Shown piece by piece: positions 13,525 to 31,298 of a stretch of DNA of 64,000 nucleotides. Origin of the DNA: Verrucomicrobiota bacterium. Lineage in GTDB: Bacteria; Verrucomicrobiota; Verrucomicrobiia; Limisphaerales; UBA8199. The DNA lies in NCBI GenBank assembly GCA_029974925.1, contig JARKQH010000093.1, forward strand, positions 8,975-72,974, written 5' to 3'. Below the pieces are notes generated by a model that ran no database searches, was not told where the DNA came from, and worked only from the letters and a program-made list of their open reading frames with translations. The position numbers and the translations under genes were made by a program. Position 1 is the stretch's first letter, and every line of letters begins with the position of its first letter.

Positions 13525-13603
13525 TTGCTTTTTGACCGAGACTCCCGCAGCTCCGGGGCGGCCGGCCGGCCGCCCGGCGCGGAGAGCGGATGGAATTTGA
13601 AAA

Positions 13604-14368: not shown

Positions 14369-14375
14369 CAATCTT

Positions 14376-14855
14376 ATGGGTTTCATTATTGGTATATTGA
14401 CCTTTCTGCTGCTGTTGGACTGCGCGGCGCTCATCTTCCTGGTCCTCATCCAGCTTCCCAAGAAGGAAGCCGGCGCGGGCCTGGCCTTTGGCGGCGCGGC
14501 GACCGACGCGCTGTTTGGCGCCGGCTCGGGCACCGTGCTGACCAAGATCACGAAATATGCCGCCGGCACATTCTTCGTGATCGCCATTCTTTTGGCCTTG
14601 CTGCAAAGCCGCCGCACGACGAGCGATTTCGAGCGCCGTTTGCAGGAGGCGGGAAGTGGCCCGGCCGCCACCGCGCCGGCCTCGCCAGCGCCCTCCACCG
14701 TCCCCGCCCCCGGTCCCGCCGAGGCCCCGACGCCGACGCCGACCGTGGCGCCGACGAATCTTCCGGCCGCGCCCGCCGCGCCGGTTGCTCCCGCGACCAA
14801 CATCCCCGTGGCCCCGCCGCCCGCCAACAGCGGGCAGCCGGCCCAGCCCAAGTAA
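14376..14855 (+). CDS. secG: preprotein translocase subunit SecG with long Pro/Ala-rich C-terminal tail
   Basis: MGFIIGILTFLLLLDCAALIFLVLIQLPKKEAGAGLAFGG... is the SecG core, in the conserved position after tpiA. The last ~75 aa are a PA-rich low-complexity tail. Confidence 0.8.
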   Translation: MGFIIGILTFLLLLDCAALIFLVLIQLPKKEAGAGLAFGGAATDALFGAGSGTVLTKITKYAAGTFFVIAILLALLQSRRTTSDFERRLQEAGSGPAATAPASPAPSTVPAPGPAEAPTPTPTVAPTNLPAAPAAPVAPATNIPVAPPPANSGQPAQPK

Positions 14856-14878
14856 CCGCACAGGACGTTTCACAGGAG

Positions 14879-14918
14879 GCGCTCTCCGAAAAGCCGCGGA
14901 GAGCGCTTCCTCTGTTTT
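14879..14918 (+). terminator. rho-independent terminator after secG
   Basis: GCGCTCTCCG (14879-14888), loop aaaagccg, CGGAGAGCGC (14897-14906), followed by TTCCTCTGTTTT. Confidence 0.65.
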
Positions 14919-15058
14919 CAGGCCCCCTGGCGCGAGCGCGGCTGGCAGCGCCCGCGACGGCTTCGGGTGCCGGGCGTTCAACCGCCTGCTTGCCGGGGAA
15001 CAAAGTCCATAAAAAGACTTGAAGTGGAGGTTAAGTTTCTGCGATAAGCTGACCCGCA

Positions 15059-16228
15059 ATGCGCAACCAGAAAACCGCAGGGTTCAGCACCCGTGGGGTG
15101 CATGGCGGGCGAGGCTTCTCCGGGACGACCGGGGCGGTGATGCCCCCCGTGTATCTCACCTCGACCTTTGAATCCGGCAATCCCGACGGTTTCGACTACA
15201 CGCGGTCGGGCAACCCGAACTTTCGGCTGTTGCAGGAGAGTGTGGCGGCGCTGGAGGGGGCGCGGCATGCGACCTGTTTCGCCAGCGGAGTGTCGGCCAT
15301 CACGGCGGTCGTTTCGACGTTGCGGAGCGGGGACCTGGTGCTGGCGGAGGAGAACCTGTACGGATGCACCTACCGCCTTTTTGAGCGGGTTTTCGCCAAA
15401 TTTGGTCTCCGGACGCAGTACCTGGACCTGAGTCAGACAGCCAACTGGGAAGCGATTCCGCGCCTGCGTCCGGCCTTGATCTGGCTGGAAAGCCCGACCA
15501 ACCCGCTGCTCAAGATATTGGACATCGAGGGCATCAGCCGCGCGGGCGCGGCCGCCGGGGCGCCGGTGCTTGTGGACAACACTTTCGCGTCGCCCTATCT
15601 CCAGCGTCCGCTCGAGCTGGGGGCGACATTGTCCCTCTCGTCAACGACGAAGTATATCAATGGCCACAGTGACTGCCTTGGCGGCGTGGTGGCCACCAAT
15701 GACGCCGAGTGGCAGGAGAAGATGATTTTCGCCCAGAAAGCCCTCGGGCTGCAACCCTCGCCCTTTGACGCGTGGCTGACGACCCGGGGCCAGCGCACCC
15801 TGGCGTTGCGCATGGAGCGGCATTGCAGCAACGCCCTCGAGCTGGCCTGTTGGCTGGAAAAACAACCGGGCGTGCGGCTGGTGCGCCATCCATTCCTGCG
15901 CAGTCATCCTCAATACGAGCTGGCCAAACGCCAGATGAGGGGCGGCTCGGGGCTGATTGTCATTGAATTGGATTGCTCCGCCGAGGCCGCCCTGGTTTTT
16001 TGCCGCCGCCTGCGCCTGTTCACCCTGGCTGAGAGCCTCGGAGGGGTCGAGAGTCTCGTGTGCCATCCGGCCACCATGACCCATGCCTCCGTGCCAGCCG
16101 AGGTGCGGCGCAAAGTGGGCATTGGAGATGGACTGCTGCGCCTGTCGGTGGGCGTCGAAGACGTCGAAGACCTGCGCAGCGACCTGGAGGAGGCGCTCCA
16201 GGCTGTTTTGCAGCGTTCGGAGTCTTAA
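15059..16228 (+). CDS. Cys/Met-metabolism PLP-dependent enzyme (cystathionine gamma-synthase/beta-lyase family)
   Basis: 389 aa with YTRSGNPN, DNTFASPYLQRPLELGA, SSTTKYINGHSD (PLP lysine) and ESLGGVESL. Confidence 0.85.
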   Translation: MRNQKTAGFSTRGVHGGRGFSGTTGAVMPPVYLTSTFESGNPDGFDYTRSGNPNFRLLQESVAALEGARHATCFASGVSAITAVVSTLRSGDLVLAEENLYGCTYRLFERVFAKFGLRTQYLDLSQTANWEAIPRLRPALIWLESPTNPLLKILDIEGISRAGAAAGAPVLVDNTFASPYLQRPLELGATLSLSSTTKYINGHSDCLGGVVATNDAEWQEKMIFAQKALGLQPSPFDAWLTTRGQRTLALRMERHCSNALELACWLEKQPGVRLVRHPFLRSHPQYELAKRQMRGGSGLIVIELDCSAEAALVFCRRLRLFTLAESLGGVESLVCHPATMTHASVPAEVRRKVGIGDGLLRLSVGVEDVEDLRSDLEEALQAVLQRSES

Positions 16229-16231
16229 ACC

Positions 16232-17692
16232 ATGTCAAGCGACTCCCTGCTTTGCCACCCCGTCTGGCGCGCCGACCAGTTGGGGAAGCCCATTCCCGAC
16301 TCGCCGCATGCGGTTTCGATGGCCCTGCCCCGCTGGCAGGATGTTGTGGATTACGAGGAGAAGACCCCGGCCATTCAAGAGTTCGTCAAGACGGGCTATC
16401 CCCGGTTTGTCGTGCACCCGCTGGTGCGGGAGTTGGGCCGGCGCGTTGGGGGGGACCGAACCTGTCTGCCGTTTCCGTCCCCGTCCGCGGCGAGGCTCGC
16501 AGCCGCGTACGTGAATCGGGCCAGCCGGGCGCCCGCTGAGGCGGTTTCGCGCGAGGGGGTCTGGGGCGTGATCACCACGGCGGAGGGAAGCGTCGCGCTC
16601 AAGGATTTCTGGCAGCATACCGGGTTGATCGTGTCCTCACGCCAGGCCGAAGCTTGTCTGGCCGGCCGGCGGGCGAAGCCGGAGGACGACGAGCCGCGCC
16701 GCGTCCTGCGCCGGCATCTGGCCGGGTGGTATGATTGCGCCGAGGACGATGTGTTCCTCACGCCAACGGGAATGGCAGCGCAGTTCCGCGCCTTGCAGGC
16801 GGTAAGGCGGCGCTGCCCCGACCGGCCAACGGTCCAATTGGGGTTCCCTTATGTGGACACGCTCAAGTTGCAGCAAAAGCTGGGGGACGGGGGCATTCTC
16901 CTCTACAATCTGGAACGCATTGAGGCGGATTTGAAGTCGCTCCTGGAGCGAGAGCCTGTCGCAGCCTGCTTTGGGGAAATTCCCGGCAATCCCTTGCTCG
17001 GTTCGGCGGACCTCCGCCGCATCAGTCCCATCATTCGCAAAGCCCGCGTCCCGCTGGTGGCCGACGACGTCGTCGCCACTCCGGCCAACGTGGACCTCGC
17101 TCCTTACGCGGACCTGGTGGCCACCAGTTTGACCAAGTTCGTGGTGGGCACGGCGGAGGCCATGGGCGGCGCGGTCATTTGCAATCCGCGCTCCCCGTTG
17201 CATGGTGAACTCAAAGCGATCCTGCGGGAACAACACGAAGACCTTCTGTGGGGCGAGGACGCTGCCGTCATCGAGGTCCAGGCGCGCGGTTTTGTGGAGC
17301 GGATGCGGCGGCACAACGCCAGCGGGTTGCTGTTAGCCGAGCGGCTCCGGCGTCATCCGGCGATTGCGCGGGTGTGGTATCCCAAATGGGAGTTTAGCGA
17401 GGCGTATGAAGCCGTGCGGCGTCCCGACGGCGGCTGGGGCGCGCTGATCACCTTCCTGCCGGGCGATGCCCCGTCCCGCTCCCCGGCCATTTACAACCGT
17501 CTGGAGGTCTGCAAAGGGCCCAGCCTCGGAACCGCTTTCACCCTCGCCTGTCCGTTCACGTTGCTGGCCCACTACACCGAATTGGATTGGGCCGAGTCCT
17601 GCGGCGTGTCCCGTTACCTCATCCGTATTTCCGTCGGGCTCGAGGACCCCGAGGACCTGTGGCGCCGGATCGAGTCCGCGCTGGCAGTCTAA
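16232..17692 (+). CDS. PLP-dependent transferase, long Cys/Met-family form (Str2-like cystathionine gamma-synthase-like)
   Basis: 486 aa, starting 3 nt after the previous stop. [29 protein letters not shown] (PLP Lys) and [20 protein letters not shown], plus a ~170-aa N-terminal extension. Confidence 0.7.
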
Positions 17693-18486
17693 TTCCAGTA
17701 CTGGCGAACCCCCGCCTGCACCCGGTCGTAATCGGGCCGCTCTTCGGGCGGGACCGGCTTGGGCCAGCCGTTGAAATACTTTGGGTATTTCCAGCGCCAG
17801 CGTTCGGCATGACCGTCGGCAAAGGAGAGACAGGCACCCTGGTTGTGTCGGTTGGCGGGAACGTCCCACCAGTTGTTGGCCCCTGGGAACCGTTCTGCCG
17901 TGGGAATTCCGAAGTGCGCGTCCAGGATTTCGTCCTCATGCACATCCAGAAAGACAAACAACTGGTCGGTGCCGGGGCGGTTGATTTGGGTGAACTTCTG
18001 GAAGCTGGGCATGAGGCTGTTGTTGAACCAGTCAAAATCGGGCCAGCCGTTGACCGCTTGAGACATGTTGTAGCTGCGGGTGCGGAGCTGGGAAAGTTTT
18101 TTGCCCGAACCATCCTCCACTGTGGACCGGTCCGCCGGACAATGATAAATGGCAACCGAGCGGTTATAGGGGAACAGCAGCCCTTGTTCGATGTTGGTGG
18201 TCGAGGTGTCGGTGCGGGTCACCCCGAGGCACCAGGACGCGCCTCGCAGCAGTTCGGTCGGGGTCGTGCCAATGGCATAGACGGAGTTGTTGGGGGGAAG
18301 GCGGTCCTGGTAGTCGGAGGTGTAAAGCTGCCAGCAGGTTTGCAGTTGCTTCAGGTTGTTCAGGCAGGAGACCGTGGCCGCTTGCTGCTTGCTGCGGCTG
18401 AGGGCAGGCAGCAAAAGCGCCGCCAGAATGGCAATAATGGCGATGACGACCAGCAGCTCAATCAAGGTGAAGCCGCTCGTTTTCAT
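17689..18486 (-). CDS. prepilin-type N-terminal cleavage/methylation protein, DUF1559 (H-X9-DG) family
   Basis: [29 protein letters not shown] (class III signal) with C-terminal [13 protein letters not shown]. The start is taken at the internal Met (18486). The stop overlaps the convergent PLP gene stop. Confidence 0.85.
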
Positions 18487-18692
18487 CCGCGCCGCGCCTG
18501 TTTCCGCTCTTTCCACGTTCACACGTCAACCGGTGTTCTTTGATATTCTACACCAAGTCCGCGCTCGCGCCAGCCGTGCCAGCAAGGGGCGGTTGGGAGG
18601 CCGGGGCCAGCACCGTGCGGGGGGCGCCGCCGAATGCGGGCCGGAAGCCCCGGCTTGAGCAAACCGCCGCAGGCCCTACACTGGGGTGTGGA

Positions 18693-19223
18693 ATGAAAAC
18701 CGACCCGCAAATTTTCCAGGACATGGACGCGCCGACGCTGCGAAGTTACATAGACTTCTTCCTGCGCCATTACCGGGTGATGGATGCCTTTTGGTTCATC
18801 TACCTGAGCGAGCGCTTCGGGCAGGAAGCGGCCGAGCAAATCAATGAAAAAGTCTGGGGACGGGTGGGAGGGCTGGCGGCCCGGGACCTGGCCGCCCGCT
18901 TTGGCATTCGGGACCGGGGCCTCCGCGGCTTGGTCGAGGTGCTGCGATACTATCCCTGGAGCCTGCTTATTGGATATGAAATCGAGGAACGGGACGACGA
19001 GGTGATACTGTCGGTGCCCGTCTGCCCGGTGCAGGAGGCGCGGTTGAAGCGGGGCTTGGGCGAATATGCCTGCCGGGCCATGCACGAGGCGGAGTTCCGC
19101 AGCATTGCGACCGCGGTGGACGACCGCATCCAGGTTGAGTGCCGGTTCGCGCCGCCCGGACCGCACCCGCCCGAGATGTATTGCCAATGGCGTTTTACCT
19201 GCCCTTGCGCGGGTCAAACTTGA
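18693..19223 (+). CDS. DUF6125-like (ATC-hydrolase-like) protein
   Basis: 176 aa starting at MKTDPQIF. VCPVQEARLKRGLGEYACRAMHEAEF...VECRFAPPGPHPPEMYCQWRF resembles DUF6125 family members as I recall them. Confidence 0.5.
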   Translation: MKTDPQIFQDMDAPTLRSYIDFFLRHYRVMDAFWFIYLSERFGQEAAEQINEKVWGRVGGLAARDLAARFGIRDRGLRGLVEVLRYYPWSLLIGYEIEERDDEVILSVPVCPVQEARLKRGLGEYACRAMHEAEFRSIATAVDDRIQVECRFAPPGPHPPEMYCQWRFTCPCAGQT

Positions 19224-19271: not shown

Positions 19272-20285
19272 ATGGCCGTCAGCCACTCCGCCGACCGCAC
19301 CAAGCAAATGCCTGTGATTGAAGTCAACGGCCTGACGAAGGTGTTCCGCACCTATCGCAAGCAACCCGGCTTTACCGGAGCCCTCAAGGGCCTGTTTCGG
19401 CGGCAGTATGAACAGCTCGAGGCCGTCAAACAGGTCAGCTTTAACATTGAGGCGGGCGAGCTGGTCGGTTTTCTGGGGCCCAACGGCGCCGGAAAGACGA
19501 CCACGCTCAAGATGCTGTCGGGGCTGTTGTATCCGACCAGCGGCATGGCCCGGGTGCTGGGCTATGTCCCGTGGGAGCGCCGGGATGGCTATCGGCGGCA
19601 GTTCGCCTTGCTGTTGGGCCAAAAGAACCAGTTATGGTGGGACCTCCCGGCCCGGGAATCGTTCGAACTCAACGCCGAGATTTACGGCATCTCGCGCGCC
19701 GACAGGGACCGGCGGGTCGGGGAGATGAGCGAGCTGCTTGGAGTTCGGGACAAGCTGAATGTCAGTGTGCGGGAGTTGTCACTGGGGGAACGCACCAAGA
19801 TGGAATTGATTGCGGCGCTGCTGCATGAGCCCAAGGTGTTGTTTCTCGACGAGCCCACCATCGGCCTGGATGTGGTCTCGCAAAAGACGGTTCGCGAATT
19901 CCTGCGGGAACACAATGCGCGGCGGCACACCACCATCCTCCTGACCAGCCACTACATGGCCGACATCGAAGCGTTGTGCAAGCGGGTGATCATCATTGAC
20001 CACGGCACCATCTTCTTCGATGGCCTGCTGAGCGAAGTGGTGGACCGTTTTGCGGACTCGAAATTGGTGCGCATCCAATGTGACGCGTCGGCCGAGTGCC
20101 CTGCCGAAAGCCTCGCGCGGTATGGCGAAGTGGTTGAGCGGACACCCGGCAGCATCCAGCTTCGCGTAAAGCGGGAGCGGGTGATCGCCGTGTGCAAGGC
20201 CCTGCTGGACGAGTTACCCGTCACTGATATTGACATCCAGGAGGTGCCCATCGAGGAAGTCATCCGGCGCATTTTTGCCCGGTAG
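19272..20285 (+). CDS. ABC transporter ATP-binding protein (no cognate permease adjacent)
   Basis: Walker A GPNGAGKTTT, signature LSLGERTKM and Walker B LFLDEPTIGLD, plus a ~100-aa C-terminal accessory domain. The start is possibly MPVIEV (19311). Confidence 0.85.
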   Translation: MAVSHSADRTKQMPVIEVNGLTKVFRTYRKQPGFTGALKGLFRRQYEQLEAVKQVSFNIEAGELVGFLGPNGAGKTTTLKMLSGLLYPTSGMARVLGYVPWERRDGYRRQFALLLGQKNQLWWDLPARESFELNAEIYGISRADRDRRVGEMSELLGVRDKLNVSVRELSLGERTKMELIAALLHEPKVLFLDEPTIGLDVVSQKTVREFLREHNARRHTTILLTSHYMADIEALCKRVIIIDHGTIFFDGLLSEVVDRFADSKLVRIQCDASAECPAESLARYGEVVERTPGSIQLRVKRERVIAVCKALLDELPVTDIDIQEVPIEEVIRRIFAR

Positions 20286-20464: not shown

Positions 20465-21772
20465 CTACTCGTGGCGCAGGGCCTCGATCGGGTCCAGTTT
20501 TGCCGCTGCCTTGGCCGGATACAGGCCGAAAATGATGCCGACAGCTCCGGAGATGCTGAACGCCAGGAGGACCGACCATGGGGTCACAATGGTCTTCATG
20601 GTGGTGAGGGAGGAGACCAGAATGGGCACCAAAATGCCCACCATCACTCCAATCAAGCCGCCGCCGACCGAAAGCACCACGGTCTCGACGAGGAACTGGA
20701 GGGTGATGTCACTCCGTTTCGCGCCCAAGGCCCGCCGGATGCCGATTTCCCGCGTTCGTTCGGTGACGGTGGCGAGCATGATGTTCATGATGCCGATGCC
20801 GCCGACGAGGAGAGAGATGGCGGCGATGGAGCCCAGCACGATGCTGAAAATTCGCTTGGTTTGTTCCGCCTGCCGCAACAGTTGAAGGGGAACAATGATT
20901 TCGTAGTCGTTCTGGTCGTGGAACCGGCCCAGGAGGGTTTTGATTTGCGGGTCCGCGGTTTCCACCGCCGCGGTATCGCGCATCTGGACAGTAATTTGGT
21001 GCAATTGCACCTCCTCGGCCTCGAAGCTGCCGGCGCTCCGGCGGATGAGGATTTCGCCGAACCGGGTGCGCGAGGTGCTGAGGGGAATGTAAACGTTGTT
21101 GTCCAGCGGCTGGCCCTCCATCTTGCCGGCCTGGGTTCGTTGCTCGGGCTGGCTCCGCTCCTGGATAATGCCAATGACGCGGTAATAGAAGGTATCTATC
21201 CGCACGCTATGCTCGAGGGGGTCCTGAATCGGAAACAGGCGGCGGGCCAGGCCGGTGGTGATGACGCAGACATTTTCCTGATGCTGCTCGTCCATCGGCG
21301 CCAGAAACCGCCCGCGCACCACCTCCGCCCCTCCCACCTCGGGATAAAATGGCAGGGTGCCGATCACCTGGCAGGGGACTTCGTTTTGGGCGAAGCGGAC
21401 ATTTTCGCGAATGATGCGCATGGGCAGCAACCGGACCACGCCGGGGATGGTGGTCATCAGCCGGCCGCTGTCGGCGTAGGTCAACCCGTATTTGAGCTGC
21501 ATGCCGCGCGGGCCGCCCATGCCCTGCTGTCGCGCCTGTTCCGGCGGTTTCAGGCTGCGAATGAGAATGTTGTTGCTGCCCAACTTCTTGATGGCCTCCT
21601 GCGCCTCGTACGACGCTCCTTCGCCGATGGCCAGCATCGCGATCACCGAGCACACGCCGAAGATGATCCCCAGCATGGTGAGGGACGAGCGCAGTTTGTG
21701 GAGCAGGAGGCTCTTGATGCCCAGCCGAACCGTGATGACGAACTGGTAGGGAACAATGAGCCGTTTCAGCAT
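20465..21772 (-). CDS. ABC transporter permease, MacB/FtsX family
   Basis: 435 aa. An N-terminal TM segment, a large periplasmic domain, then the C-terminal FtsX 3-TM block ([17 protein letters not shown]...). Confidence 0.85.
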
Positions 21773-22557
21773 GAGGCCCCCCGTCCGTTGCCCCCCGACC
21801 GGGCCGCCGGTGGCAACTGGTCTATGTCCTGGTCCACCAGCCCGTCTTTCATCCGCACCACACGGTGGGCCCGCGCGGCGACTTTGTCGTCATGCGTGAC
21901 CAGGATGATGGTCTTGCCAGCCTCGTTCAGCCGTGAGATGAGGTCCAAGACCTCGGCACCGGTGCGCGAGTCCAGGTTGCCGGTGGGTTCGTCGGCTAGA
22001 ATCATCAACGGGTCATTGACCAGGGAGCGGGCCACGGCGACGCGTTGTTGTTGTCCGCCGGAAAGCTGGGTTGGCCGGTGGTGCAGGCGGTCGCCCAGTC
22101 CGACCAGTCGAGCCAGCTCGACACACCGGTCATACGTCGCTTTCAGGTCCACCCCTCGATAGAAGAGCGGGACCTGGATGTTTTCGATCACCGTCAATTG
22201 TGCGATGAGGTTGTAGGACTGAAAAATGAAGCCGATGCGCCGGCCGCGGGCTTCGGACAACTCATCGTCGCTCATTCGCGAGACATCCTCTCCTCCAAGC
22301 CAATAGCGGCCGGCGGTCGGACGGTCCAAACAGCCGAGGATGTTGAGCATGGTGGATTTGCCCGAGCCCGACGGGCCCATGATCGCGACAAACGAACCCT
22401 CCTCGATGGACAGGTCCACGCCCGCCAAGGCTCGCACGATGTTCTCGCCCCCGAGGAAGTAGGTCTTTTCGATCCGTTCCAGACGGATGATGCTGTTGTC
22501 GCCGGGCGGGGGCGGCGGCACCGGGGCAGGCTGGCCGGCTTGCGCTTGCATGGGCAT
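21766..22557 (-). CDS. ABC transporter ATP-binding protein, MacB/LolD type
   Basis: [38 protein letters not shown]. Overlaps the permease gene by 7 nt. Confidence 0.9.
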
Positions 22558-22563
22558 GAACTG

Positions 22564-24615
22564 TCAACGCGGCGGCGCCTCGGGTGAACGACGGCCACCC
22601 TCCTCCGGGGCCCCGGCCCGGCCACCGCCGGCCTCGCCCTCCGGACCGGACCGCTCCCCTCCGCCCCGGGGACCGCGTCCACCAAACCTCGCCCGCAAAG
22701 CCGCGCGCTCCTCTTCATCCAGTTCCCCGTCGCCATTCTTGTCGAACTGGCGCAGCATTTCCTCGCGGCTGAGTCGTCCGGGACCGGCGTTGGTGCCGCT
22801 TGGGCCGAAGCCCCCCTGGGCAAAACGCGCCGCCATGGCGGTTCGCATCGCCTCACGCTCCGTTTCATCCAGTTGCCCGTCGCTGTTCCGGTCGAATTGT
22901 TTCAGCATTTCCTCCGGGTTGAAGCCGCCCCGACGTCCGGGCCCCGCAGCGCCGTTGGGCCCGCCAGCGGCCACCGTTTCCGCTCCCTCACCGTTCGGAG
23001 GGCGGTCCGGCCCGCGGACGGACAGGTCAGCGCGCGGGGGCGGGACGTTGGTGGACAGGGTCGCTTTCTCGGCATCGGCCAAGACGCCCCGTTCGAGGTC
23101 TTTTTCCTGGGTATCGAACGGCGGCGAGAGCAGGACGCGCTCGCCTTCGTTCAGGCCACGGGTAATCTCGATGAACTTTGTGTTGTAGAGTCCGATCTCG
23201 ACCGGCTTGGGTTCGAAGCGGCCGCCTTTGGCAACATAAACCGCCTGCGTGCCGCGATAGCTGGTCACCGCCTGAATCGGCACCGACAGGGTGTTGGCGA
23301 TGTTGGTGACAATAATCTCGGCGCGAGCGGACACGCCCGGCTTCACGTTCGGAATGGTGTCGGTCAGGAAAATCTCGGTGTTATAGACTTTGAGGTTCGG
23401 GTTGCCCCAACGGCTTTGGGTGTCCGGCAGCGGGGCCACGCGCTCCACCACCCCCCGGTAGCGCTGGTCCGGCGCGGAATCCAGCATGACATAGGCCGGA
23501 AGGCCGGGCCGGATCATGTTCACGTGCGATTCATGGATTTTCACCGTGACTTTCATGCGGGACAGGTCCGGCAGTTTGATGAGCTCCTGCCGGTTTCGAA
23601 CCACCGCCCCGCCTTCGATGAGGGATTCGCTACTGAAGCGGTTCTCGCTGACCTGATACACCACCAAACCGTCCTGGGGCGCCACAATGCGGGTGGCCTC
23701 GAGGTTCTTGCGGTCGCGTTTGAGCTTCTCCTCGTTCAACGCCAGCGTGTTGAGCTGGGTGGCCAGATCGGCCTCGTACTGGGCCATTTTCCGGCGGTTC
23801 TGGTTCACCACGCGCTCCAGCTCCTCCTCGGCCTGGCGGACATCGGCCTCGTATTTCTCGCGGCTCTTGACCGAGTCGAAATTCTGCAGCAGCCAGAGGG
23901 TGTTGGTGGCCACGGTGAGGGCATTGAGGCTGTTGAGAACTGCCAGCCAGTCGCTGGCGGCCTTCTGCTTGGTTTCATACCCTTTGGCGGCGAGGTTGGT
24001 CGAGTTGCGGTAGGTATCGAGGTTGACGGCCAGTTGGGCCTCGGCCTGGACCACCCGGTTGCTGGCTTCGATGAGGTCCACCAGGCGCTGGCCCTGCTCG
24101 TATTTTTCACGGTCAATTTTGGCGAACTTGACCTTGAGGACGGCGGCGAGGTAATCGCTGTTGGTGGCGCTCTTTTGGATTTCGAGCTGGGCTTGCGCCT
24201 GTTCGACGGCGAACTTGGCCTTTTCGTAGGCGATCTGCTGCTGGTTGACCTGGTCCTGCGCCTGGGCGGAATCCAGCTCGACCAGCAGGTCGCCCTTCTT
24301 GACGTAGGTGCCTTCGGGCACGATCCAGATGATGCGGGCGGTTCCCTCGACCTCGTTGCGAATGCTGATCTCGCTGACCGCCGCCAACGTTCCCCCTTCG
24401 ACCACGGTCACGGTGAAATCGCCGCGCTTGACCTCATAGAATTCGGTGGCACTGGTCTTCCGACTGGCGGGCCGCAGCAGAAGGAACAAGCCCAGCGCCA
24501 TCCCCGCCACCACCAACAGGGACAGGAGGGGACGGCGTTTAAGCCAGCCGAGCAGGCCGTTGCCGGCGCCGGCCGGAGGGGGAGAGGTAGTCATGGGAGT
24601 GGAACTGGGTTTCAT
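22564..24615 (-). CDS. HlyD/MacA-family periplasmic adaptor with C-terminal double EF-hand extension
   Basis: 683 aa: N-terminal TM, lipoyl-like and long coiled-coil regions, a beta-barrel, then a Gly/Pro-rich ~170-aa tail. The tail contains DRNSDGQLDETE (22858-22893) and DKNGDGELDEEE (22708-22743). Confidence 0.85.
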   Translation of the reverse strand: MKPSSTPMTTSPPPAGAGNGLLGWLKRRPLLSLLVVAGMALGLFLLLRPASRKTSATEFYEVKRGDFTVTVVEGGTLAAVSEISIRNEVEGTARIIWIVPEGTYVKKGDLLVELDSAQAQDQVNQQQIAYEKAKFAVEQAQAQLEIQKSATNSDYLAAVLKVKFAKIDREKYEQGQRLVDLIEASNRVVQAEAQLAVNLDTYRNSTNLAAKGYETKQKAASDWLAVLNSLNALTVATNTLWLLQNFDSVKSREKYEADVRQAEEELERVVNQNRRKMAQYEADLATQLNTLALNEEKLKRDRKNLEATRIVAPQDGLVVYQVSENRFSSESLIEGGAVVRNRQELIKLPDLSRMKVTVKIHESHVNMIRPGLPAYVMLDSAPDQRYRGVVERVAPLPDTQSRWGNPNLKVYNTEIFLTDTIPNVKPGVSARAEIIVTNIANTLSVPIQAVTSYRGTQAVYVAKGGRFEPKPVEIGLYNTKFIEITRGLNEGERVLLSPPFDTQEKDLERGVLADAEKATLSTNVPPPRADLSVRGPDRPPNGEGAETVAAGGPNGAAGPGRRGGFNPEEMLKQFDRNSDGQLDETEREAMRTAMAARFAQGGFGPSGTNAGPGRLSREEMLRQFDKNGDGELDEEERAALRARFGGRGPRGGGERSGPEGEAGGGRAGAPEEGGRRSPEAPPR

Positions 24616-26384
24616 GATGCAGGCTCCAGAAATTGTTGCGGGGGCAGGACCCGGTCGTCGGGCATGCGCAAGGGGGGCGCGCCGCGTTGTTCGGGCTTGA
24701 GCAGCGTTTCCAGCGGGTCCAGCAGCCAGAACTTTTCCGGCCGGATGTCAATCACCCCAAGGTCCACCAGCAACCCCAGCCGGTCGGCCAGGTAGGAGGC
24801 GTAAATGTTCGCCAACTGGTTTTGGGCGTTGATGAGGTTGTCCTGCGACTCGCGAACATCGCGGATTGTCGCCCGGCCGGCCTCCAGCAGCATGAGGTTG
24901 TTCTCGACGCGCCGTTCGGCCACGCGCAGCGACTCGACCCCGTTAAGGTAATTGAGGCGGGCCTGTTCAATGGCCCGCAGGCCGGCGTCAATGCGCTCCT
25001 TGTACTGGTCCAGCGTGAGCGCGAGCGACCGGAGCTGGGCTTCGAAATTGATCAAGGCGTTCCGGTAATCGTTCCGTTTCAGCAGCCGGTCCAGCGGCAA
25101 ATCCAGCCGGATGCCGGCGTTGTACCGGATTTTTTGGGGCTCAAAGTGCGCGTAATCGTCCGGGGGCTCGGACTCGACGGAGCCGCTGGCGAAAAAGTTG
25201 ACATCGGCGCGAAGCTGATCCGCGGCGATCCGCACCTTGCGCTTGCTGTCCTCGAACTGGTCAATGGCATTGAGCACCTCCATCTGGCGCTCCAGGCAGA
25301 TTTGAAAAGCCGCGTCGCGGTCAACCTCGACGGGAATCAGGCCGGCCTGGATGAGTTCCTTCAGGTCCTTGTCCTCCAGGTACACCTGCTCGGCAATCGG
25401 CAGGCCCAGCCGCAGCTTGAAATTGTCCAGGGCCGTCAGGAACGAAGCCAGCGAGTTGATGTAGTCCCGCCGCGCCCCGAGCTCCGCCGTCCGCGCGTCG
25501 TCCACGTTGCTTTCGCGCTCCCGGTCCACGGCCCGGGCCTGGAGATAGCGGGTGGTCTCCACCCGGTTGGTATAGTTCCGGTAGTTGTTCCGGACGATGT
25601 CCTTCTGCGTCACCAGGCGGAAATAGGCGCTGACGGTGTCCACGGCAAACTGCTGCTGGTAGAGGCTGAAGGAGCGAACCTCATACACCACGTTGCGTTC
25701 CGCCTGGGTCAGGTTCTCGACCGCCGGGTTGTTGATTCCGAAACCCCGCAACAGGGGCTGCGACAGGTTCACCGACAGGAAACTGATGGCCGTGTTGCGG
25801 GCCGACCGCGACCCGCCGGACCCGGCGGTGAACTGCGTGAAATAACGAACGAGGTCATTGCCGAGCGCGGCGGTTAGTTTGCCGCCGCTCTTGAGCAACT
25901 GGCTCACGCTGACCTGGCTGCTGACCGAGCCGACGTCGGAGCCCTCGCCCGAGCCGCTGATGGCCGCCTCGCTGGTCGCGGTGAAGGCGGGGCCAAACTC
26001 GTAGCGGCGCCCCGTCAGTGTGAGGGCGCGGAGGTAAAGCTGTTCTTTGCGCGTCTGATATTCCCGGCTGTTCTTGAAAGCCAGGTCCAGGGCCTCTGCC
26101 AGATTGATGACCCGCAGGTTCGTGGCGTTCCGGTCGGCAATGATTTCCGCCGGCAAAATCGTGGCGGGGTCCCGATGGGAATACACCGTATCAATCGTAA
26201 ACGCGTTGGTGCGCCCGAAAATCTGGCGCTCCACTTGTTGGAGAATTCCGTAAACTTCCTTGTCCGCCGACTTGCGATAATGTTTCGCGCTGCAGCCACA
26301 CAACACCACCAGCCCGCCCATCAGCCATAAAAGACAATGGGCGGCCGCCTTGCCACTGCGATGTCCGAACCGACCAGATTCCAT
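24612..26384 (-). CDS. TolC-family outer membrane efflux protein (lipoprotein-type N-terminus)
   Basis: 590 aa. Signal plus VVLCGC lipobox-like site and two repeated OEP halves rich in coiled-coil segments. Overlaps the adaptor gene by 4 nt. Confidence 0.8.
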   Translation of the reverse strand: MESGRFGHRSGKAAAHCLLWLMGGLVVLCGCSAKHYRKSADKEVYGILQQVERQIFGRTNAFTIDTVYSHRDPATILPAEIIADRNATNLRVINLAEALDLAFKNSREYQTRKEQLYLRALTLTGRRYEFGPAFTATSEAAISGSGEGSDVGSVSSQVSVSQLLKSGGKLTAALGNDLVRYFTQFTAGSGGSRSARNTAISFLSVNLSQPLLRGFGINNPAVENLTQAERNVVYEVRSFSLYQQQFAVDTVSAYFRLVTQKDIVRNNYRNYTNRVETTRYLQARAVDRERESNVDDARTAELGARRDYINSLASFLTALDNFKLRLGLPIAEQVYLEDKDLKELIQAGLIPVEVDRDAAFQICLERQMEVLNAIDQFEDSKRKVRIAADQLRADVNFFASGSVESEPPDDYAHFEPQKIRYNAGIRLDLPLDRLLKRNDYRNALINFEAQLRSLALTLDQYKERIDAGLRAIEQARLNYLNGVESLRVAERRVENNLMLLEAGRATIRDVRESQDNLINAQNQLANIYASYLADRLGLLVDLGVIDIRPEKFWLLDPLETLLKPEQRGAPPLRMPDDRVLPPQQFLEPAS

Positions 26385-26841
26385 GCGTCATTCAACAAAC
26401 AAACCGTTTGATGTCGAACCCGACTCTTAACCTACCAAGCCCGGGGCGCGAATGCACTTCTTTTCGCGACCGAACGCCGCGATGCTCTTTCTGACGCACC
26501 ACACCAGCGCAAAATTCGGTTGAATTGCACCTCCATGCGCCCGACGGCTCTGATTGAGGGGCCGGTGGGCGGCGCACACCAACACGATATGCCCCACCCC
26601 GCGGGCTCTGCCATCGGCCGCCGCGACGGGCGGCCACCCTCACCCGCTGCCCCGGCGCCTCGGCAGCGCCGCTTTGCCATCGTCCGCTTCGGGCAGGTCC
26701 TGCGACTCGCGGCGCGAAGACCGGTTGCTCGCGTCAATTTTTTTACTGGCGGATGCTCGCGCAAGCCGGGCGCCCTTCTGGGGCCGGCGGGAGAGTGGGA
26801 GCGGCATTTACTTTCCGCGCCCCGGCTGTTACAAAAAGGCT

Positions 26842-27654
26842 GTGTTGAATGACTCTGCCATTTGGAAATCCCTGCGGGATAATCGCCGGCTGAGCCTGAT
26901 CGCCGGCCCCTGCGTGATCGAGAACGAGGGGCTGTGCCTCGAGGTCGCCAGGAGCCTTAAGGGGCTTTGCAGCCGGCTGGGCATCTTTTTCGTGTTCAAA
27001 GCCAGCTACGACAAAGCCAACCGGACCTCGGCGGAGTCGTTTCGGGGACCGGGAATCGAGGAAGGTCTGCGACTGCTTGCGGGCGTGCGGAAACGGGTCG
27101 GCGTGCCGATTTTAACGGACGTGCATACGGAGTGGGAGGCCAAAGCCGCGGGCGAAGTGGTGGATGTGGTTCAAATCCCGGCGTTTCTCTGCCGGCAGAC
27201 GGACCTCATTACCGCCGCGGTCCGCACGGGGAAGATTGTGAACCTGAAAAAAGGCCAGTTCCTTTCCCCGGGGGAAATGGGGCAGGTGGTGGCCAAGGCG
27301 CAAAGCGCGGGCGGGAAAAAACTTCTGCTGACCGAGCGCGGCACAACCTTTGGGTACAATAATTTGGTGTCGGACATGCGGGCCATCCCGATCATGAAGA
27401 GACTCGGGTTCCCGGTCATATTTGACGCGACCCATTCGGTACAACTTCCCGGCGGGGGTGGGAACAAGTCGGGCGGCCAGCGGGAATTTGCGCCCGTGCT
27501 GGCCCGCTGTGCGGTCGCGGCGGGGGCCAATGGCCTGTTCATCGAGACCCATCCCGAGCCAGACCGGGCCCTGAGCGACGGTCCCAATATGATTCCGCTG
27601 GCGGAAATGCCGGCGGTCATGAAAAGTCTGGTCAAGATTTTCGAAGCCCTTTGA
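26842..27654 (+). CDS. kdsA: 3-deoxy-8-phosphooctulonate synthase
   Basis: Collinear with E. coli KdsA: FVFKASYDKANRTS, ILTDVHT, VVQIPAFLCRQTDL, VIFDATHS, GLFIETHPEPD. A GTG at 26842 gives the expected ~270 aa. The ORF-track start at 26554 is an upstream extension. Confidence 0.9.
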   Translation: MLNDSAIWKSLRDNRRLSLIAGPCVIENEGLCLEVARSLKGLCSRLGIFFVFKASYDKANRTSAESFRGPGIEEGLRLLAGVRKRVGVPILTDVHTEWEAKAAGEVVDVVQIPAFLCRQTDLITAAVRTGKIVNLKKGQFLSPGEMGQVVAKAQSAGGKKLLLTERGTTFGYNNLVSDMRAIPIMKRLGFPVIFDATHSVQLPGGGGNKSGGQREFAPVLARCAVAAGANGLFIETHPEPDRALSDGPNMIPLAEMPAVMKSLVKIFEAL

Positions 27655-29534
27655 GTCCGCGCTTTCAATTCTCGCGCAAGCTGTGGCTGTCGGCGGCGTT
27701 GCTGCTGGCCGCCCTGGCCGCGGCTCCGCCGGCCGCGTCTGGCCAGCAGACGGTCATGGGCCGGGTCAAGAATTTCAGCGTGTCGCCCGATTATTACGAC
27801 CCGCCCCAACAGGCCCAGGCGAAATCCCTGCTGCAAGGCGCCGAAGCCGTGCCCATGGCGGGCGGGCAACAGGTCCAGATCACCCAGGCGCGCCTCCGCA
27901 CATTCCGCGAGGACGGCGCGGAGGAAATGCTGGTCGTGGCGCCCGAGTGTTTGTACGAGTCCCGCTCCCGGTCGGTCCGGTCGGCCGGCCCACTCGAGGT
28001 TCAAACCGCTGACGGCAAGTTCTCCCTTCAGGGCGAGGGTTTCAGTTGGCAGCAAACCAATTCGACCCTGGTGATTTCGAACCAGGTGCGGACGCGCGTG
28101 CATCCATCGCTATTGCAGCGCGGGGAGCCGAGTGAAGCCGCCGCTGCGACCGCGGAGGAGCCCCCGTTGGAAATCACCTCGGAGCGGTTCGAATATGCCC
28201 GCGAGGAGGGGTTGGGAATTTATCGCGGACAGGTGCGCGTGAGCGGGACGAACCTGGCGATGAGCGGGGGCGTCCTGACGATTCAGATGCCGGTGGGCGG
28301 CCGGCGGGTGCAGAGCATCACCGCCGAGCAGCAAATCGCCGTCGAGTACAGCGGCGTGCAGGCCTCGGGCGAACACGCGGTTTATGCGGCCGACACCGGG
28401 ATGGTTCGGGTGTGGGGGCGGCCCGCCTGGAAGACTGGCCAGCGCGAGGGCCGCGCGGAGGAACTGGTCATTGACCCCACCAACCGTGTTTTTTTGGCCT
28501 CAGGCAACGGTCGGATGCGGCTCCCTGGGGAAAGCTTGGCGGGGTCGGGCTTGCTGGCATCAGGCCGGCAAGGCAGCAAAACGCCAACCAACCTCTTTGT
28601 CGAGATTGCGTGCGAACAATACGAGCTGCGCACCAATTGGGCGGCCTTTCGCCGGGCGGTGCGCGTCACGGAGGTCGAGTCCGGCGTTCCCCGAGGCACC
28701 CTGACGTGTGCCCAAATGACCGTCCGGTTTGCCGGGACAAACGAAGTCGAGGAGCTGCTGGCGGACGGCGGGGTTGAGATCACGCAGGAAGACCGGCGAT
28801 TCACCGCGGAACGCGCAGTGTACCACGGCACCAACGGAATCGTCGAGTTGACCGGCAATCCCCTCTGGCAGGCCGGCGCGCGGCAGGGGCAAGGCGAGGT
28901 CATCCTCGTTCGCGCGCGGGAGGAGGACATGATCGTCCGCGGCAGGGCTTCGATGCGGCTGCCCGCGTCCGAGTTCGGCGCGCTTGTTACCGCACCCGCT
29001 GCGCTGCCAACTCCGGCTTCGATTGCGCCGCCCGCCACTCCGGCCGCCGGAGCCGCGCCCGAATTTGCCGACGTTTTCTGCGAAGAATACCGGGTCAGCG
29101 CAAGAGGCGCCGTGTTCAGCGGCGGGGTTTATATCAGCCATCCCCAAATGAACTGGTCGTGCGAAATGCTGACCGTTGAACTGCCCGCGACGGGAGGAAC
29201 CATTGAACGGATTGTGGCGCAGGACTCGGTGTCGTTTGACCTGGCGGACCGGCAGGGACAGGTAGTGCACGGCACTGGCGACCGGGCGGTCTATCTTTAT
29301 CGCGTGGTTGAGGGCGTCACCAATGATTTGGTTGAACTGACGGGCAACTCCGTGCTGCAAACCACCAACGGGATTTTCCGAAATGACCCCATCATTTTGG
29401 ACCGCGCCAACAGCCGGCTGATTGCGCCGGGACAGTATCACATTCAGGGCTGGGGCAAGGTGGATGAGAACCAACTGCTGGCGCCGGCGGCGGGGCCTGG
29501 CGCTCCACGGACGAACCCGGCTCGAAGAAAGTAA
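27651..29534 (+). CDS. secreted protein with an LptC-like module plus three LptA/OstA-like modules
   Basis: 627 aa. TTG start overlapping the kdsA stop, signal peptide LWLSAALLLAALAAAPPAASG. Three internal ~140-aa repeats each carry an A..AVY...G.V.L.G.P pattern and two of them end in ..MRLP. It sits between kdsA and lptB. Confidence 0.65.
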   Translation: MSPRFQFSRKLWLSAALLLAALAAAPPAASGQQTVMGRVKNFSVSPDYYDPPQQAQAKSLLQGAEAVPMAGGQQVQITQARLRTFREDGAEEMLVVAPECLYESRSRSVRSAGPLEVQTADGKFSLQGEGFSWQQTNSTLVISNQVRTRVHPSLLQRGEPSEAAAATAEEPPLEITSERFEYAREEGLGIYRGQVRVSGTNLAMSGGVLTIQMPVGGRRVQSITAEQQIAVEYSGVQASGEHAVYAADTGMVRVWGRPAWKTGQREGRAEELVIDPTNRVFLASGNGRMRLPGESLAGSGLLASGRQGSKTPTNLFVEIACEQYELRTNWAAFRRAVRVTEVESGVPRGTLTCAQMTVRFAGTNEVEELLADGGVEITQEDRRFTAERAVYHGTNGIVELTGNPLWQAGARQGQGEVILVRAREEDMIVRGRASMRLPASEFGALVTAPAALPTPASIAPPATPAAGAAPEFADVFCEEYRVSARGAVFSGGVYISHPQMNWSCEMLTVELPATGGTIERIVAQDSVSFDLADRQGQVVHGTGDRAVYLYRVVEGVTNDLVELTGNSVLQTTNGIFRNDPIILDRANSRLIAPGQYHIQGWGKVDENQLLAPAAGPGAPRTNPARRK

Positions 29535-29539
29535 AGCCT

Positions 29540-30292
29540 ATGGAACAAGCCGGGAACATTGCCGAGGGCGCCACGCTGCTGGCCACGGACAAACTGGTCA
29601 AGGAGTATCGCCAGCGGCGCGTGGTCAATGGCGTGTCCATCTCGGTTGGGCCGGGCGAGATTGTGGGTTTGCTGGGGCCGAACGGCGCCGGCAAGACCAC
29701 GACGTTTAACATGGTGGTGGGGGTGATCAAGCCGGACGGGGGGACGGTCCGGTTCGAAGGGCGGGAAATCACCGGCCTGCCGATGCACCGGCGCGCGCGC
29801 CTGGGCATGGGCTATCTGACGCAGGAACCGTCCATCTTCCGCAAACTCACCGTCGAGCAGAACATCCTCGCCATACTGGAAACCTGCCGCATCAGCCGCC
29901 AGGAAAGGGCTGTCCGGCTCAAATATCTGCTGGATGAATTGGACATGGCGCGGCTGGCGCGCAGCAAAGCCTACACCCTGAGCGGGGGGGAGAAACGCCG
30001 TCTGGAAATCACCCGCGCCCTGGTAACGAGTCCCAAGCTGCTGTTGCTGGACGAACCCTTCAGCGGCATTGACCCCATCGCGGTTTACGAAGTGCAAAAG
30101 ATCGTGCGCCGGCTTAAGGACCGCGGCCTGGGCATTTTGATCACCGACCACAACGTGCGGGAAACGCTCAAGTTGGTGGATCGCGCGTATTTGATCCACA
30201 AGGGCGAAGTCGTGATTGAGGGCGTGGCCGAACAATTGGTGAGCGACCCCAAAGCCCGCGAGATCTATCTTGGGCCGGAATTCAACCTGTAA
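29540..30292 (+). CDS. lptB: LPS export ABC transporter ATP-binding protein
   Basis: 250 aa with GPNGAGKTTTF, GMGYLTQEPSIFRKLTV, LSGGEKRRLEITRAL and LLLDEPFSGIDP, a typical LptB. Confidence 0.9.
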   Translation: MEQAGNIAEGATLLATDKLVKEYRQRRVVNGVSISVGPGEIVGLLGPNGAGKTTTFNMVVGVIKPDGGTVRFEGREITGLPMHRRARLGMGYLTQEPSIFRKLTVEQNILAILETCRISRQERAVRLKYLLDELDMARLARSKAYTLSGGEKRRLEITRALVTSPKLLLLDEPFSGIDPIAVYEVQKIVRRLKDRGLGILITDHNVRETLKLVDRAYLIHKGEVVIEGVAEQLVSDPKAREIYLGPEFNL

Positions 30293-30350
30293 CGGCAGCC
30301 ATGACCGATTCCCCCTTCCGCAGCCAGTCTGAACCCATCCTGTTTGTCCT

Positions 30351-31298
30351 ATGCATCGCGACCATGTCACGGTAGAACGATTTTACACCGATCACGCGTC
30401 GGCGCTGGGCCTGAACCTCGTGGCGGGCGCCAGCGGGCTCAAGCGCATCATCCGCGAGCCGACGGTCAACCGCCCCGGGCTGGTGCTCACCGGCTTCACG
30501 CGTTATTTCGCCTACAAACGCGTGCAGGTCATTGGCAACGCGGAAGCCTTTTACCTGAAATCGCTCCCGGAGGAGGAGCGTTCACGGCGCTATGAAACCT
30601 TTTTCAGCTATCGCCTGCCCTGCCTGGTGTTTTCCCGCAATCTGCACCCGGACAAATTGCTGCTGCAGGCGGCGGAAAAGGTCAATGTGCCCATCTTCCG
30701 CACCCCGCTGGTGACCATGAAGTTTATCAACCTGGCCACGCTGGCCCTCGAGATGATGTTTGCTCCGCGGGGGACGGAGATGGGCAGCATGGTGGACATC
30801 CTGGGCGTGGGGGTGATTATCCGTGGGGAGAGCGGCATTGGCAAAAGCGAAAGTGTGCTGGCGCTGATCGAGCGAGGGTACAGCCTGGTGGCCGATGACA
30901 TCACCAAGGTTACGCTGGTGGACGGGCGGGAGGTGATCGGCACCAGCGCCGAGGTCACGCGCAACCACATGGAGGTCCGGGGCATCGGCATCATCAATGT
31001 GGCGGCGATGTTCGGCGTCAAAAGCATCCGCCAGGACAAGCGGGTGGACCTGGTGGTGTCGCTCAAGTCGTGGAACGAGGTGCAGGATGTGGACCGCCTG
31101 GGGATGGAGGAGGAGTATGTGAAAATCCTCGGCATTGACATCCCGCACATCACCATCCCGGTCCGGCCCGGGCGTGATCTGGCCCGCTTGATCGAGGTGG
31201 CCGCGTTCCAGACCAAGCTGAAATCCTCGGGCTACAACCCCGCCAAGGAACTCAACGACCGGCTGATTGCGCGGATGGCCTCGACCGGCAAGTTGTAG
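30351..31298 (+). CDS. hprK: HPr kinase/phosphorylase
   Basis: 315 aa with Walker A GESGIGKSESVLALIERG, LVADD, and EVRGIGIINV. Confidence 0.9.
   Translation: MHRDHVTVERFYTDHASALGLNLVAGASGLKRIIREPTVNRPGLVLTGFTRYFAYKRVQVIGNAEAFYLKSLPEEERSRRYETFFSYRLPCLVFSRNLHPDKLLLQAAEKVNVPIFRTPLVTMKFINLATLALEMMFAPRGTEMGSMVDILGVGVIIRGESGIGKSESVLALIERGYSLVADDITKVTLVDGREVIGTSAEVTRNHMEVRGIGIINVAAMFGVKSIRQDKRVDLVVSLKSWNEVQDVDRLGMEEEYVKILGIDIPHITIPVRPGRDLARLIEVAAFQTKLKSSGYNPAKELNDRLIARMASTGKL

Follow-up and report, generated by a model that had tools for sequence, protein, structure and literature searches.

The window, a 64-kb stretch of DNA from a Verrucomicrobiota bacterium (contig JARKQH010000093.1), encodes on its minus strand a MacA-type periplasmic adaptor, or membrane fusion protein, that ends in a long tail with two EF-hand units. 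Comparison with homologs shows that the two loops are canonical EF-hand motifs, putative sites for Ca2+, and that purifying selection acts on these motifs throughout the order Limisphaerales; judged by the same comparison, the tail has been conserved in a clade of the rank of an order. The original prediction, made from the letters of the window, had described a MacA/HlyD-type adaptor with EF-hands on its C-terminal tail, and this description is supported by the matches to TIGR01730 and Pfam and by the Foldseek comparison. The tail sequences that it quoted agree exactly with the translation of the open reading frame at 22564-24615 (-), whose C-terminal part reads GRRGGFNPEEMLKQFDRNSDGQLDETEREAMRTAMAARFAQGGFGPSGTNAGPGRLSREEMLRQFDKNGDGELDEEERAALRARFGGRG. 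In what follows, residues (aa) are numbered along this protein of 683 residues, and the structural models were made with AlphaFold2 (AF2), their local confidence being given as pLDDT (predicted local distance difference test). From the end of the adaptor core to the C-terminus, the tail has the following parts:

23044..23124, minus strand: post-core motif PPFDTQEKDLERGVLADAEKATLSTNV, aa 498-524; D506, L507, L512, E516, T522 and N523 are at least 90% conserved; low AF2 confidence
22918..23043, minus strand: linker 1, aa 525-566, Gly/Pro/Ala-rich, predicted disordered (pLDDT < 50), variable in length
22819..22917, minus strand: EF-hand unit 1 (EF1), aa 567-599, PEEMLKQFDRNSDGQLDETEREAMRTAMAARFA (translation and AF2)
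22858-22893, minus strand: loop of EF1, DRNSDGQLDETE, aa 575-586 (translation)
22768..22818, minus strand: linker 2, aa 600-616, Gly-rich, disordered (pLDDT and alignment)
22681..22767, minus strand: EF-hand unit 2 (EF2), aa 617-645, REEMLRQFDKNGDGELDEEERAALRARFG (translation, Pfam and AF2)
22708-22743, minus strand: loop of EF2, DKNGDGELDEEE, aa 625-636 (translation)
22564..22680, minus strand: C-terminal end, aa 646-683, and stop codon, Arg/Gly/Glu-rich, disordered (pLDDT < 50), 27% identical to homologs

Both loops fit the pattern D-x-[DN]-x-D-G-x-[ILV]-D-x-x-E, which had been claimed with [IL] in place of [ILV], and a six-frame scan of the whole window found two such loops, both in the adaptor tail, where residue composition leads one to expect about 6e-5. 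In a Pfam scan, which had been suggested as a check, the models EF-hand_5 and EF-hand_1 both pass their cutoffs on the second loop (29.2 against 25.9 bits and 27.9 against 25.4 bits, respectively), but the pair model EF-hand_7, aligned over aa 569-636, scores 24.6, under its cutoff of 30. In the AF2 model each loop is flanked by an entering and an exiting helix (567-574 and 584-599 in EF1, 617-624 and 634-644 in EF2), with pLDDT values of about 88-91. When the tail was modelled by itself the same helix-loop-helix units were obtained and a packed pair was not predicted (predicted template modelling score, pTM, 0.36). With this model Foldseek returned EF-hand proteins alone, weakly (best E 0.46, TM-score at most 0.38); among these weak top matches are the pollen 2-EF-hand allergen Che a 3, 1ht9 (entitled "domain swapping EF-hands") and 1cta, a homodimeric single-site EF-hand peptide. 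Sequence matches of the tail in the PDB are calmodulin, CaBP1 and calbindin D9k. In a canonical EF-hand loop of 12 residues the ligands occupy positions 1, 3, 5 and 12 (the last a bidentate Glu), with Gly at 6 and a hydrophobic residue at 8. Across 36 two-unit tails, D1, D5, G6 and E12 are invariant in both loops; a set of 219 loops has N or D at position 3 and L or I at position 8, with K at position 2 in 197 of them (90%) and P in none, and D at position 9 in 181 (83%).

The rest of the tail is of a different nature. The tether between the core and EF1, of about 70 residues, is disordered in the AF2 model, and the variable part of linker 1 (aa 531-564) is 26% identical to homologs, with 20% gaps. 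The two loops are spaced by 50 aa in the window protein and by 28-56 aa in its homologs. The net charge of the tail is about -6, and in the full-length model it is not docked onto the core. The post-core motif, which follows the membrane-proximal domain directly, has the pattern PPFDTQEKDLEGAVL..EKA....TN; this segment (aa 498-524) may be a binding peptide.

The adaptor itself is recognizable by sequence and by fold. It matches TIGR01730 RND_mfp with 117 bits (cutoff 94.9), as well as the Pfam models HlyD_D23 and HlyD_3, and the full-length AF2 model, built on 67 homologs, has a mean pLDDT of 78. The best matches of this model in the PDB are the MacA chains of MacAB-TolC (9qgy_G and 5nik_D, E ~1e-22). 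The equivalog level is not reached, given that the NCBIfam MacA model NF008606 scores 87 bits against a cutoff of 342, so that, strictly speaking, the protein is no ortholog of MacA; its homologs are labelled in the databases as "HlyD family secretion protein" or "efflux RND transporter periplasmic adaptor subunit". The main parts of the protein are:

22564..24615, minus strand: MacA-type periplasmic adaptor with EF-hand tail, 683 aa (TIGR01730, Pfam, AF2 and Foldseek)
24475..24531, minus strand: N-terminal transmembrane anchor, aa 29-47 (AF2 helix 29-47; hydrophobic stretch PLLSLLVVAGMALGLFLLL, with KRR just before it)
23125..24453, minus strand: adaptor core, aa 55-497, with barrel-sandwich, alpha-hairpin, beta-barrel and membrane-proximal domains (AF2 secondary structure and pLDDT)
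23695-24267, minus strand: alpha-hairpin, unusually long, with helices 117-210 and 216-307 of about 92 residues each (AF2)

The beta domains of the core finish near aa 495-500 in the model, in agreement with the earlier estimate that the core ends at about aa 500. Because of the N-terminal anchor, everything past aa 47, the tail included, is expected to be periplasmic; given the transmembrane helix and the MacA-like fold of the model, the tail must be on this side of the membrane. The hairpin helices are far longer than in E. coli MacA (a model of 371 positions), and the partner outer-membrane protein, with 590 aa, is also long. Together, the long hairpin of the model and the long outer-membrane partner are a hint that these Verrucomicrobia may have a taller pump or a periplasm of greater width.

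The genes around the adaptor define the type of pump. The order tolC-hlyD-ATPase-permease, proposed in the original prediction, is confirmed by Pfam and NCBIfam matches, and the four genes (OEP, adaptor, ABC_tran and MacB_PCD with FtsX) are tightly packed, being adjacent or overlapping. The three partners of the adaptor are:

24612..26384, minus strand: outer-membrane factor of the TolC/OEP family, 590 aa, first gene of the operon (Pfam OEP, 52 bits)
21766..22557, minus strand: ATP-binding cassette (ABC) ATPase subunit, 263 aa, a polypeptide of its own (Pfam ABC_tran, 109 bits)
20465..21772, minus strand: MacB-type permease, 435 aa, with the MacB periplasmic core domain and the FtsX transmembrane domain (Pfam MacB_PCD, 122 bits; FtsX, 71 bits)

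The gene for the outer-membrane factor, which has a probable lipoprotein signal (LVVLCGC), shares 4 nt with the start of the adaptor gene and lies upstream of it in all 39 related loci. The ATPase gene begins 6 nt past the adaptor stop codon. Its product corresponds to the N-terminal half of MacB, and neither it nor the permease, which are encoded by separate genes, reaches the MacB equivalog level (NF007826, 248 and 205 bits, respectively, against a cutoff of 966). Across the related loci, the ATPase is 74-96% identical and the permease 66-97% (73-97% for intact genes). The combination of an adaptor, an OEP protein, an ATPase and a MacB_PCD/FtsX permease therefore identifies the system as a tripartite ABC exporter that resembles MacAB-TolC but has its MacB split in two. 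Synteny of the four genes was found in 39 species-representative genomes of Verrucomicrobiota. The same operon (CP116615.1, 4441554-4459554) is present in the complete genome of Fontisphaera persica, a cultured member of the order Limisphaerales.

The distribution of the tail among homologs was surveyed as well. A search of 5.8 billion proteins gave 1889 matches below 1e-10, and EF loops were counted with a regular expression in the best 120 of these 1889 (54-99% identical), nearly all of them from metagenome-assembled genomes of Verrucomicrobiota. Two loops were found in 77 proteins, one in 25, three in 12, four in one and none in five. A second search started from the core of the ortholog that diverges most, at 46% identity, and in this divergent subclade, to which F. 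persica belongs with a single-unit tail, the 120 listed proteins had one loop in 100 cases, two in 5 and none in 15. Both listings together give one to four EF loops in 220 of 240 homologs, and every complete orthologous locus examined carries them. A tail absent or unconserved in orthologs had been named beforehand as grounds for abandoning the prediction, and the survey found the opposite. The EF units stand out as islands of conservation: they are 63-64% identical to the query, whereas the linkers stay at 26-31% and the core reaches 69-83% (the latter against 66 homologs).

Three loci that seemed to be tail-less, L014, L015 and L021, have EF loops in the next reading frame. The regions concerned, in these draft genomes, are ~7578-7698 in L014, ~7733-7883 in L015 (where there is also a run of N) and ~7779-7911 in L021; the change of frame probably reflects assembly errors in the linker, which is Gly-rich and high in GC, and not truly split genes. 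Some of the 15 loop-less proteins of the divergent subclade have a decayed loop, e.g. QRFDTNSDVQISDSE (DTNSDVQIS), in which Gly6 is lost; decayed loops were seen in the C-terminal 60 aa of P0334, P0366, P0339, P0307 and P0332. Four proteins (P0319, P0351, P0355 and P0398) have short loop-less tails that end in VADVK, and some loop-less proteins are 548-556 aa long. Proteins with a decayed or absent loop are natural loss-of-function variants, useful for comparative tests. Another trait of the orthologous tails (alignment A2, columns 101-121) is a recurrent G-G-S-R-T-N-R just past the last EF-hand in many of them, together with a T-N dipeptide in the linker between units; the SRTNR motif is absent from the window protein.

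The relationship between the two units turned out to be old. The original prediction regarded them as near-identical, the result of a tandem duplication of about 150 bp. A direct repeat does exist at the DNA level, with a spacing of 150 nt; nevertheless, it covers 79 nt (22694-22772 versus 22844-22922) at 77% identity, and Tandem Repeats Finder reported no repeat in 22400-23300. "Near-identical" was likewise an overstatement, since the units of 33 aa are 55% identical in the window protein, and the stretches of 23 aa that had been quoted are about 70% identical, as counted from the sequence. In a comparison of 78 two-unit proteins, the mean identity was 68% between EF1 and the EF1 of other proteins, 64% between EF2 and the EF2 of other proteins, and 55% between EF1 and EF2 of the same protein. 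Each position also has its signature, EF1 ending in ...EREAMRxAMAARF and EF2 in ...ERAAMRxSFGG; three-unit tails contain an extra internal unit of the EF1 type, and the unit of single-unit tails is of the EF2 type. A recent tandem duplication was rejected, as identity at the same position exceeds that within the protein. The units group by position and not by protein, and therefore the duplication is old, the units are positionally orthologous, and gains and losses came later.

As for the origin of the module, a HMMER scan with the 89-aa tail against 1.84 billion representatives gave 3143 matches below 1e-3 and 584 below 1e-10, of which the best 150 were examined. These are mostly proteins of 150-500 aa in which units with the same consensus occur 2-12 times, with Gly/Pro/Arg linkers between them. 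A signal-peptide-like N-terminus is present in 119 of the 150, six are fragments of adaptors, and the few members with a taxonomic name are from Verrucomicrobiales, Gimesia and Planctomycetaceae. A further example was found in a Kiritimatiellae metagenome-assembled genome, where a gene at 5582-6145 (+) of locus L039 encodes a secreted protein of 187 aa with three units. The secreted proteins of the Planctomycetes-Verrucomicrobia-Chlamydiae (PVC) bacteria and the tail share the unit consensus EEMLKxFDKNGDGxLDxxERxAMR. Full-length adaptors were not listed in this search of representatives, because the multi-repeat secreted proteins outscore them. Since the best matches of the tail are secreted multi-EF-hand proteins with the same consensus, the tail is, by sequence similarity, a PVC-typical secreted EF-hand repeat module fused to a pump adaptor. 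The secreted proteins with 2-12 units (P0121-P0270) belong to a large and essentially unannotated family, with 584 clusters at E < 1e-10, and a literature search on EF-hands in Planctomycetes and Verrucomicrobia found no description of it. A free poly-EF-hand gene was found within 6 kb of the operon in none of the 39 loci.

Among known systems, the protein can be compared first with two groups. With MacA from the MacAB-TolC pump of E. coli (PDB 5nik, 9qgy and 3fpp), its best structural match, it shares the N-terminal transmembrane anchor and the four-domain adaptor fold, and their operon partners are equally a MacB-type ABC transporter and a TolC-family channel. In contrast, E. coli MacA (NF008606, 371 positions) ends at the membrane-proximal domain and has no tail, whereas the adaptor described here continues for 186 C-terminal residues with two EF-hands; its hairpin is twice as long, and MacB is split into ATPase and permease genes. 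On the other side, EfhP from Pseudomonas aeruginosa, CaBP from Caulobacter, calsymin from Rhizobium and the PVC secreted proteins have the same canonical 12-residue loops and are likewise exported to the envelope. EfhP is periplasmic and has two EF-hands (PMC9132961), and CaBP has three and a Sec signal peptide (PMC13171946). All of these are small, free-standing proteins, in contrast with the EF units studied here, which a disordered tether joins covalently to the adaptor of a pump.

Metal-binding periplasmic adaptors are known from the heavy-metal pumps of the resistance-nodulation-division (RND) class. CusB and ZneB bind the metal that is transported (Cu/Ag and Zn, respectively) by Met/His sites inside the adaptor or in its N-terminal region, and they have no EF-hands; here the site is for Ca2+, as predicted from sequence, and the transporter is a MacB-type ABC protein. 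Dockerin type I and the calmodulin-like pairs also consist of duplicated Ca2+-binding loop-helix units, which mediate Ca2+-dependent protein contacts. Unlike those of dockerin, the units of the tail have both the E and the F helix. Classical EF-hand pairs have an inter-loop spacing of ~36-40 aa, as compared with 50 aa here, where the model of the tail lacks a confident packed pair. No fusion of this kind was described in the full-text literature on EF-hands together with periplasmic adaptors, HlyD or membrane fusion proteins, in keeping with the earlier view that the tail is not a standard adaptor feature; on the basis of this search and of the present clade, an EF-hand tail on an adaptor appears to be undescribed.

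EF-hands almost always fold as pairs, and MacA works as a hexamer (cf. 5nik); therefore, it is proposed that the tails of neighbouring protomers pair with each other. According to the scheme that we tentatively favour, with a confidence somewhat short of even, the adaptor acquired a periplasmic module formed by the ~70-residue disordered tether, the two EF-hand units and the disordered Arg/Gly-rich end. The loops would bind Ca2+ at the concentrations of the envelope, the tails of adjacent protomers in the hexamer would pair (two-unit tails could also pair within the chain), and a collar dependent on Ca2+ would thereby form close to the inner membrane. In response to Ca2+ outside the cell or in the periplasm, this collar would stabilise or tune pump assembly. 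The tail would be a modulator, and not an on/off requirement. Pairing between protomers is preferred because single-unit tails are common, because the spacing between loops varies from 28 to 56 aa, and because AF2 packs no pair and Foldseek gives weak EF-hand matches; in the divergent subclade the single-unit tail is in fact the commonest form.

With respect to affinity, periplasmic EfhP binds Ca2+ with a dissociation constant of 13.7 uM, and the level of Ca2+ in the periplasm mirrors the one outside or lies above it (PMC9132961). Since free Ca2+ in the periplasm follows the medium, a structural or environment-sensing role is favoured over gating of the second-messenger kind. The same fact can be turned against pairing that responds to Ca2+, as the sites may be filled at all times and have a structural role alone. 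Two other observations weigh on this side: about 12% of the divergent subclade has no loop or a decayed one, so that the pump can work without it, and AF2 packs no pair, a weak objection given that the model is an ion-free monomer built on a shallow alignment. The loss or decay of the loop in some lineages means that the module is dispensable. For these reasons, the Ca2+-gated assembly or activity put forward in the original prediction is a plausible hypothesis, pure inference from sequence, that is tempered by the losses of the loop.

An alternative is that the tail carries Ca2+ constitutively and takes no part in regulatory pairing; such an appendage could buffer Ca2+ locally, on its tether, or act as a spacer (an entropic bristle) close to the pump. 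The tail would then be another case of the PVC secreted EF-hand module put on envelope proteins, with a modest effect and no gating. We consider this account possible, though doubtful. In its favour, the proteins most closely related to the tail are secreted, free-standing and made of 2-12 units only, there is free variation in the number of copies and the length of the linkers, some lineages have a decayed loop or none, and Ca2+ in the periplasm follows that of the medium (PMC9132961). Nevertheless, a mere spacer would not hold every Ca2+ ligand invariant, nor does it explain that the EF1- and EF2-specific flanking residues are conserved by position over an order-level clade, or that the fusion has been kept at one position in one operon in hundreds of genomes.

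It is also conceivable, though improbable in our estimation, that the tail is a Ca2+-dependent docking module of the dockerin or calmodulin type. Its partner could be the motif at aa 498-524, the periplasmic domain of MacB, the outer-membrane factor or the secreted poly-EF-hand proteins, which in the last case would be recruited as cargo or cofactors. The conserved 27-aa post-core motif lies between the core and the tether, the tether itself gives reach, and one homolog (P0080) has a Dockerin_1 Pfam match as well. MacAB-type pumps expel Sec-exported periplasmic proteins, e.g. the enterotoxin STII, which also speaks for docking. In addition, Ca2+ raises the exposure of hydrophobic surface in periplasmic EfhP (PMC9132961). 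The lack of poly-EF-hand genes close to the operon argues in the opposite direction, as does the full-length AF2 model, where the tail is left undocked from the core. A broader proposal, in which the tails pair across the six protomers or with free secreted poly-EF-hand proteins, as a Ca2+-dependent collar or a site for cargo recruitment, seems rather unlikely.

Very improbable is the idea that the tail handles a metal substrate in the manner of CusB and ZneB, capturing periplasmic Ca2+, or lanthanides as lanmodulin does, and feeding it to the pump for extrusion. In support of it, metal-efflux pumps have adaptors that bind the substrate, structures of CusB and ZneB occur among the Foldseek matches, and the Asp that predominates at loop position 9 is a feature of lanmodulin loops. 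The pump, however, is of the MacB type and not a heavy-metal RND pump, export of Ca2+ would be futile, since the periplasm equilibrates through porins, and the tail has been lost in some lineages. Lanmodulin loops typically have Pro at position 2 along with the extra carboxylate at position 9, and the residue found here at position 2 is mostly Lys; lanthanide binding was set aside, as none of the 219 loops has that Pro. Finally, a chance product of low-complexity sequence or a functionless, mis-called extension of the reading frame has hardly any probability left: the tail does sit in Gly/Pro-rich low-complexity sequence where Tandem Repeats Finder is silent, but the excess of loops over expectation, the matches to curated Pfam models, the invariant ligands and the retention of the tail throughout the clade led to the rejection of such an accident, and the ortholog survey effectively refutes it.

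Other genes of the window and of the related loci deserve a brief mention. Divergent from the pump operon, at 26554-31298 (+), are a KdsA-like gene (DAHP_synth_1), a gene for a protein of 627 aa with LptA/LptD_N domains, an ABC ATPase, which we take to be LptB-like, and an HPr kinase. A link between the pump and the kdsA, LptA-like and lptB neighbours was rejected, as none of them adjoins the operon in the 39 other loci. On the other side, 17689-18522 (-) encodes a protein with a prepilin-type N-terminal methylation motif and a weak DUF1559 match, under the Pfam cutoff; this architecture is typical of PVC bacteria. Beside it there is a DUF6125 protein at 18540-19223 (+), and 19272-20285 (+) encodes one more ABC ATPase. 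Downstream of the pump operon of F. persica (12875-17818 of locus L043) there are genes for a WXG100 protein and for an FtsK/SpoIIIE ATPase of 1294 aa, a type VII secretion-like pair that is unusual in a Verrucomicrobium.

Tripartite pumps have a central place in the export and drug resistance of bacteria, and control over assembly and energy coupling is generally ascribed to the adaptors. Should the tail be a constitutive Ca2+-loaded appendage only, the fusion would be a modest curiosity among domain fusions. If the reading based on contacts across subunits or with cargo is true, the assembly of a MacB-type pump, or its capture of substrate, would be directly coupled to envelope Ca2+, a coupling that to our knowledge is not known for any tripartite exporter. 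The idea is testable, since the cultured F. persica has the operon with a single-unit tail. The finding also provides a concrete cellular setting for the secreted EF-hand repeat proteins of PVC bacteria, a large family that has hardly been studied, and a clade-conserved Ca2+-binding module on the adaptor would be the first sign of an ABC-type tripartite pump that reads a periplasmic ion directly.

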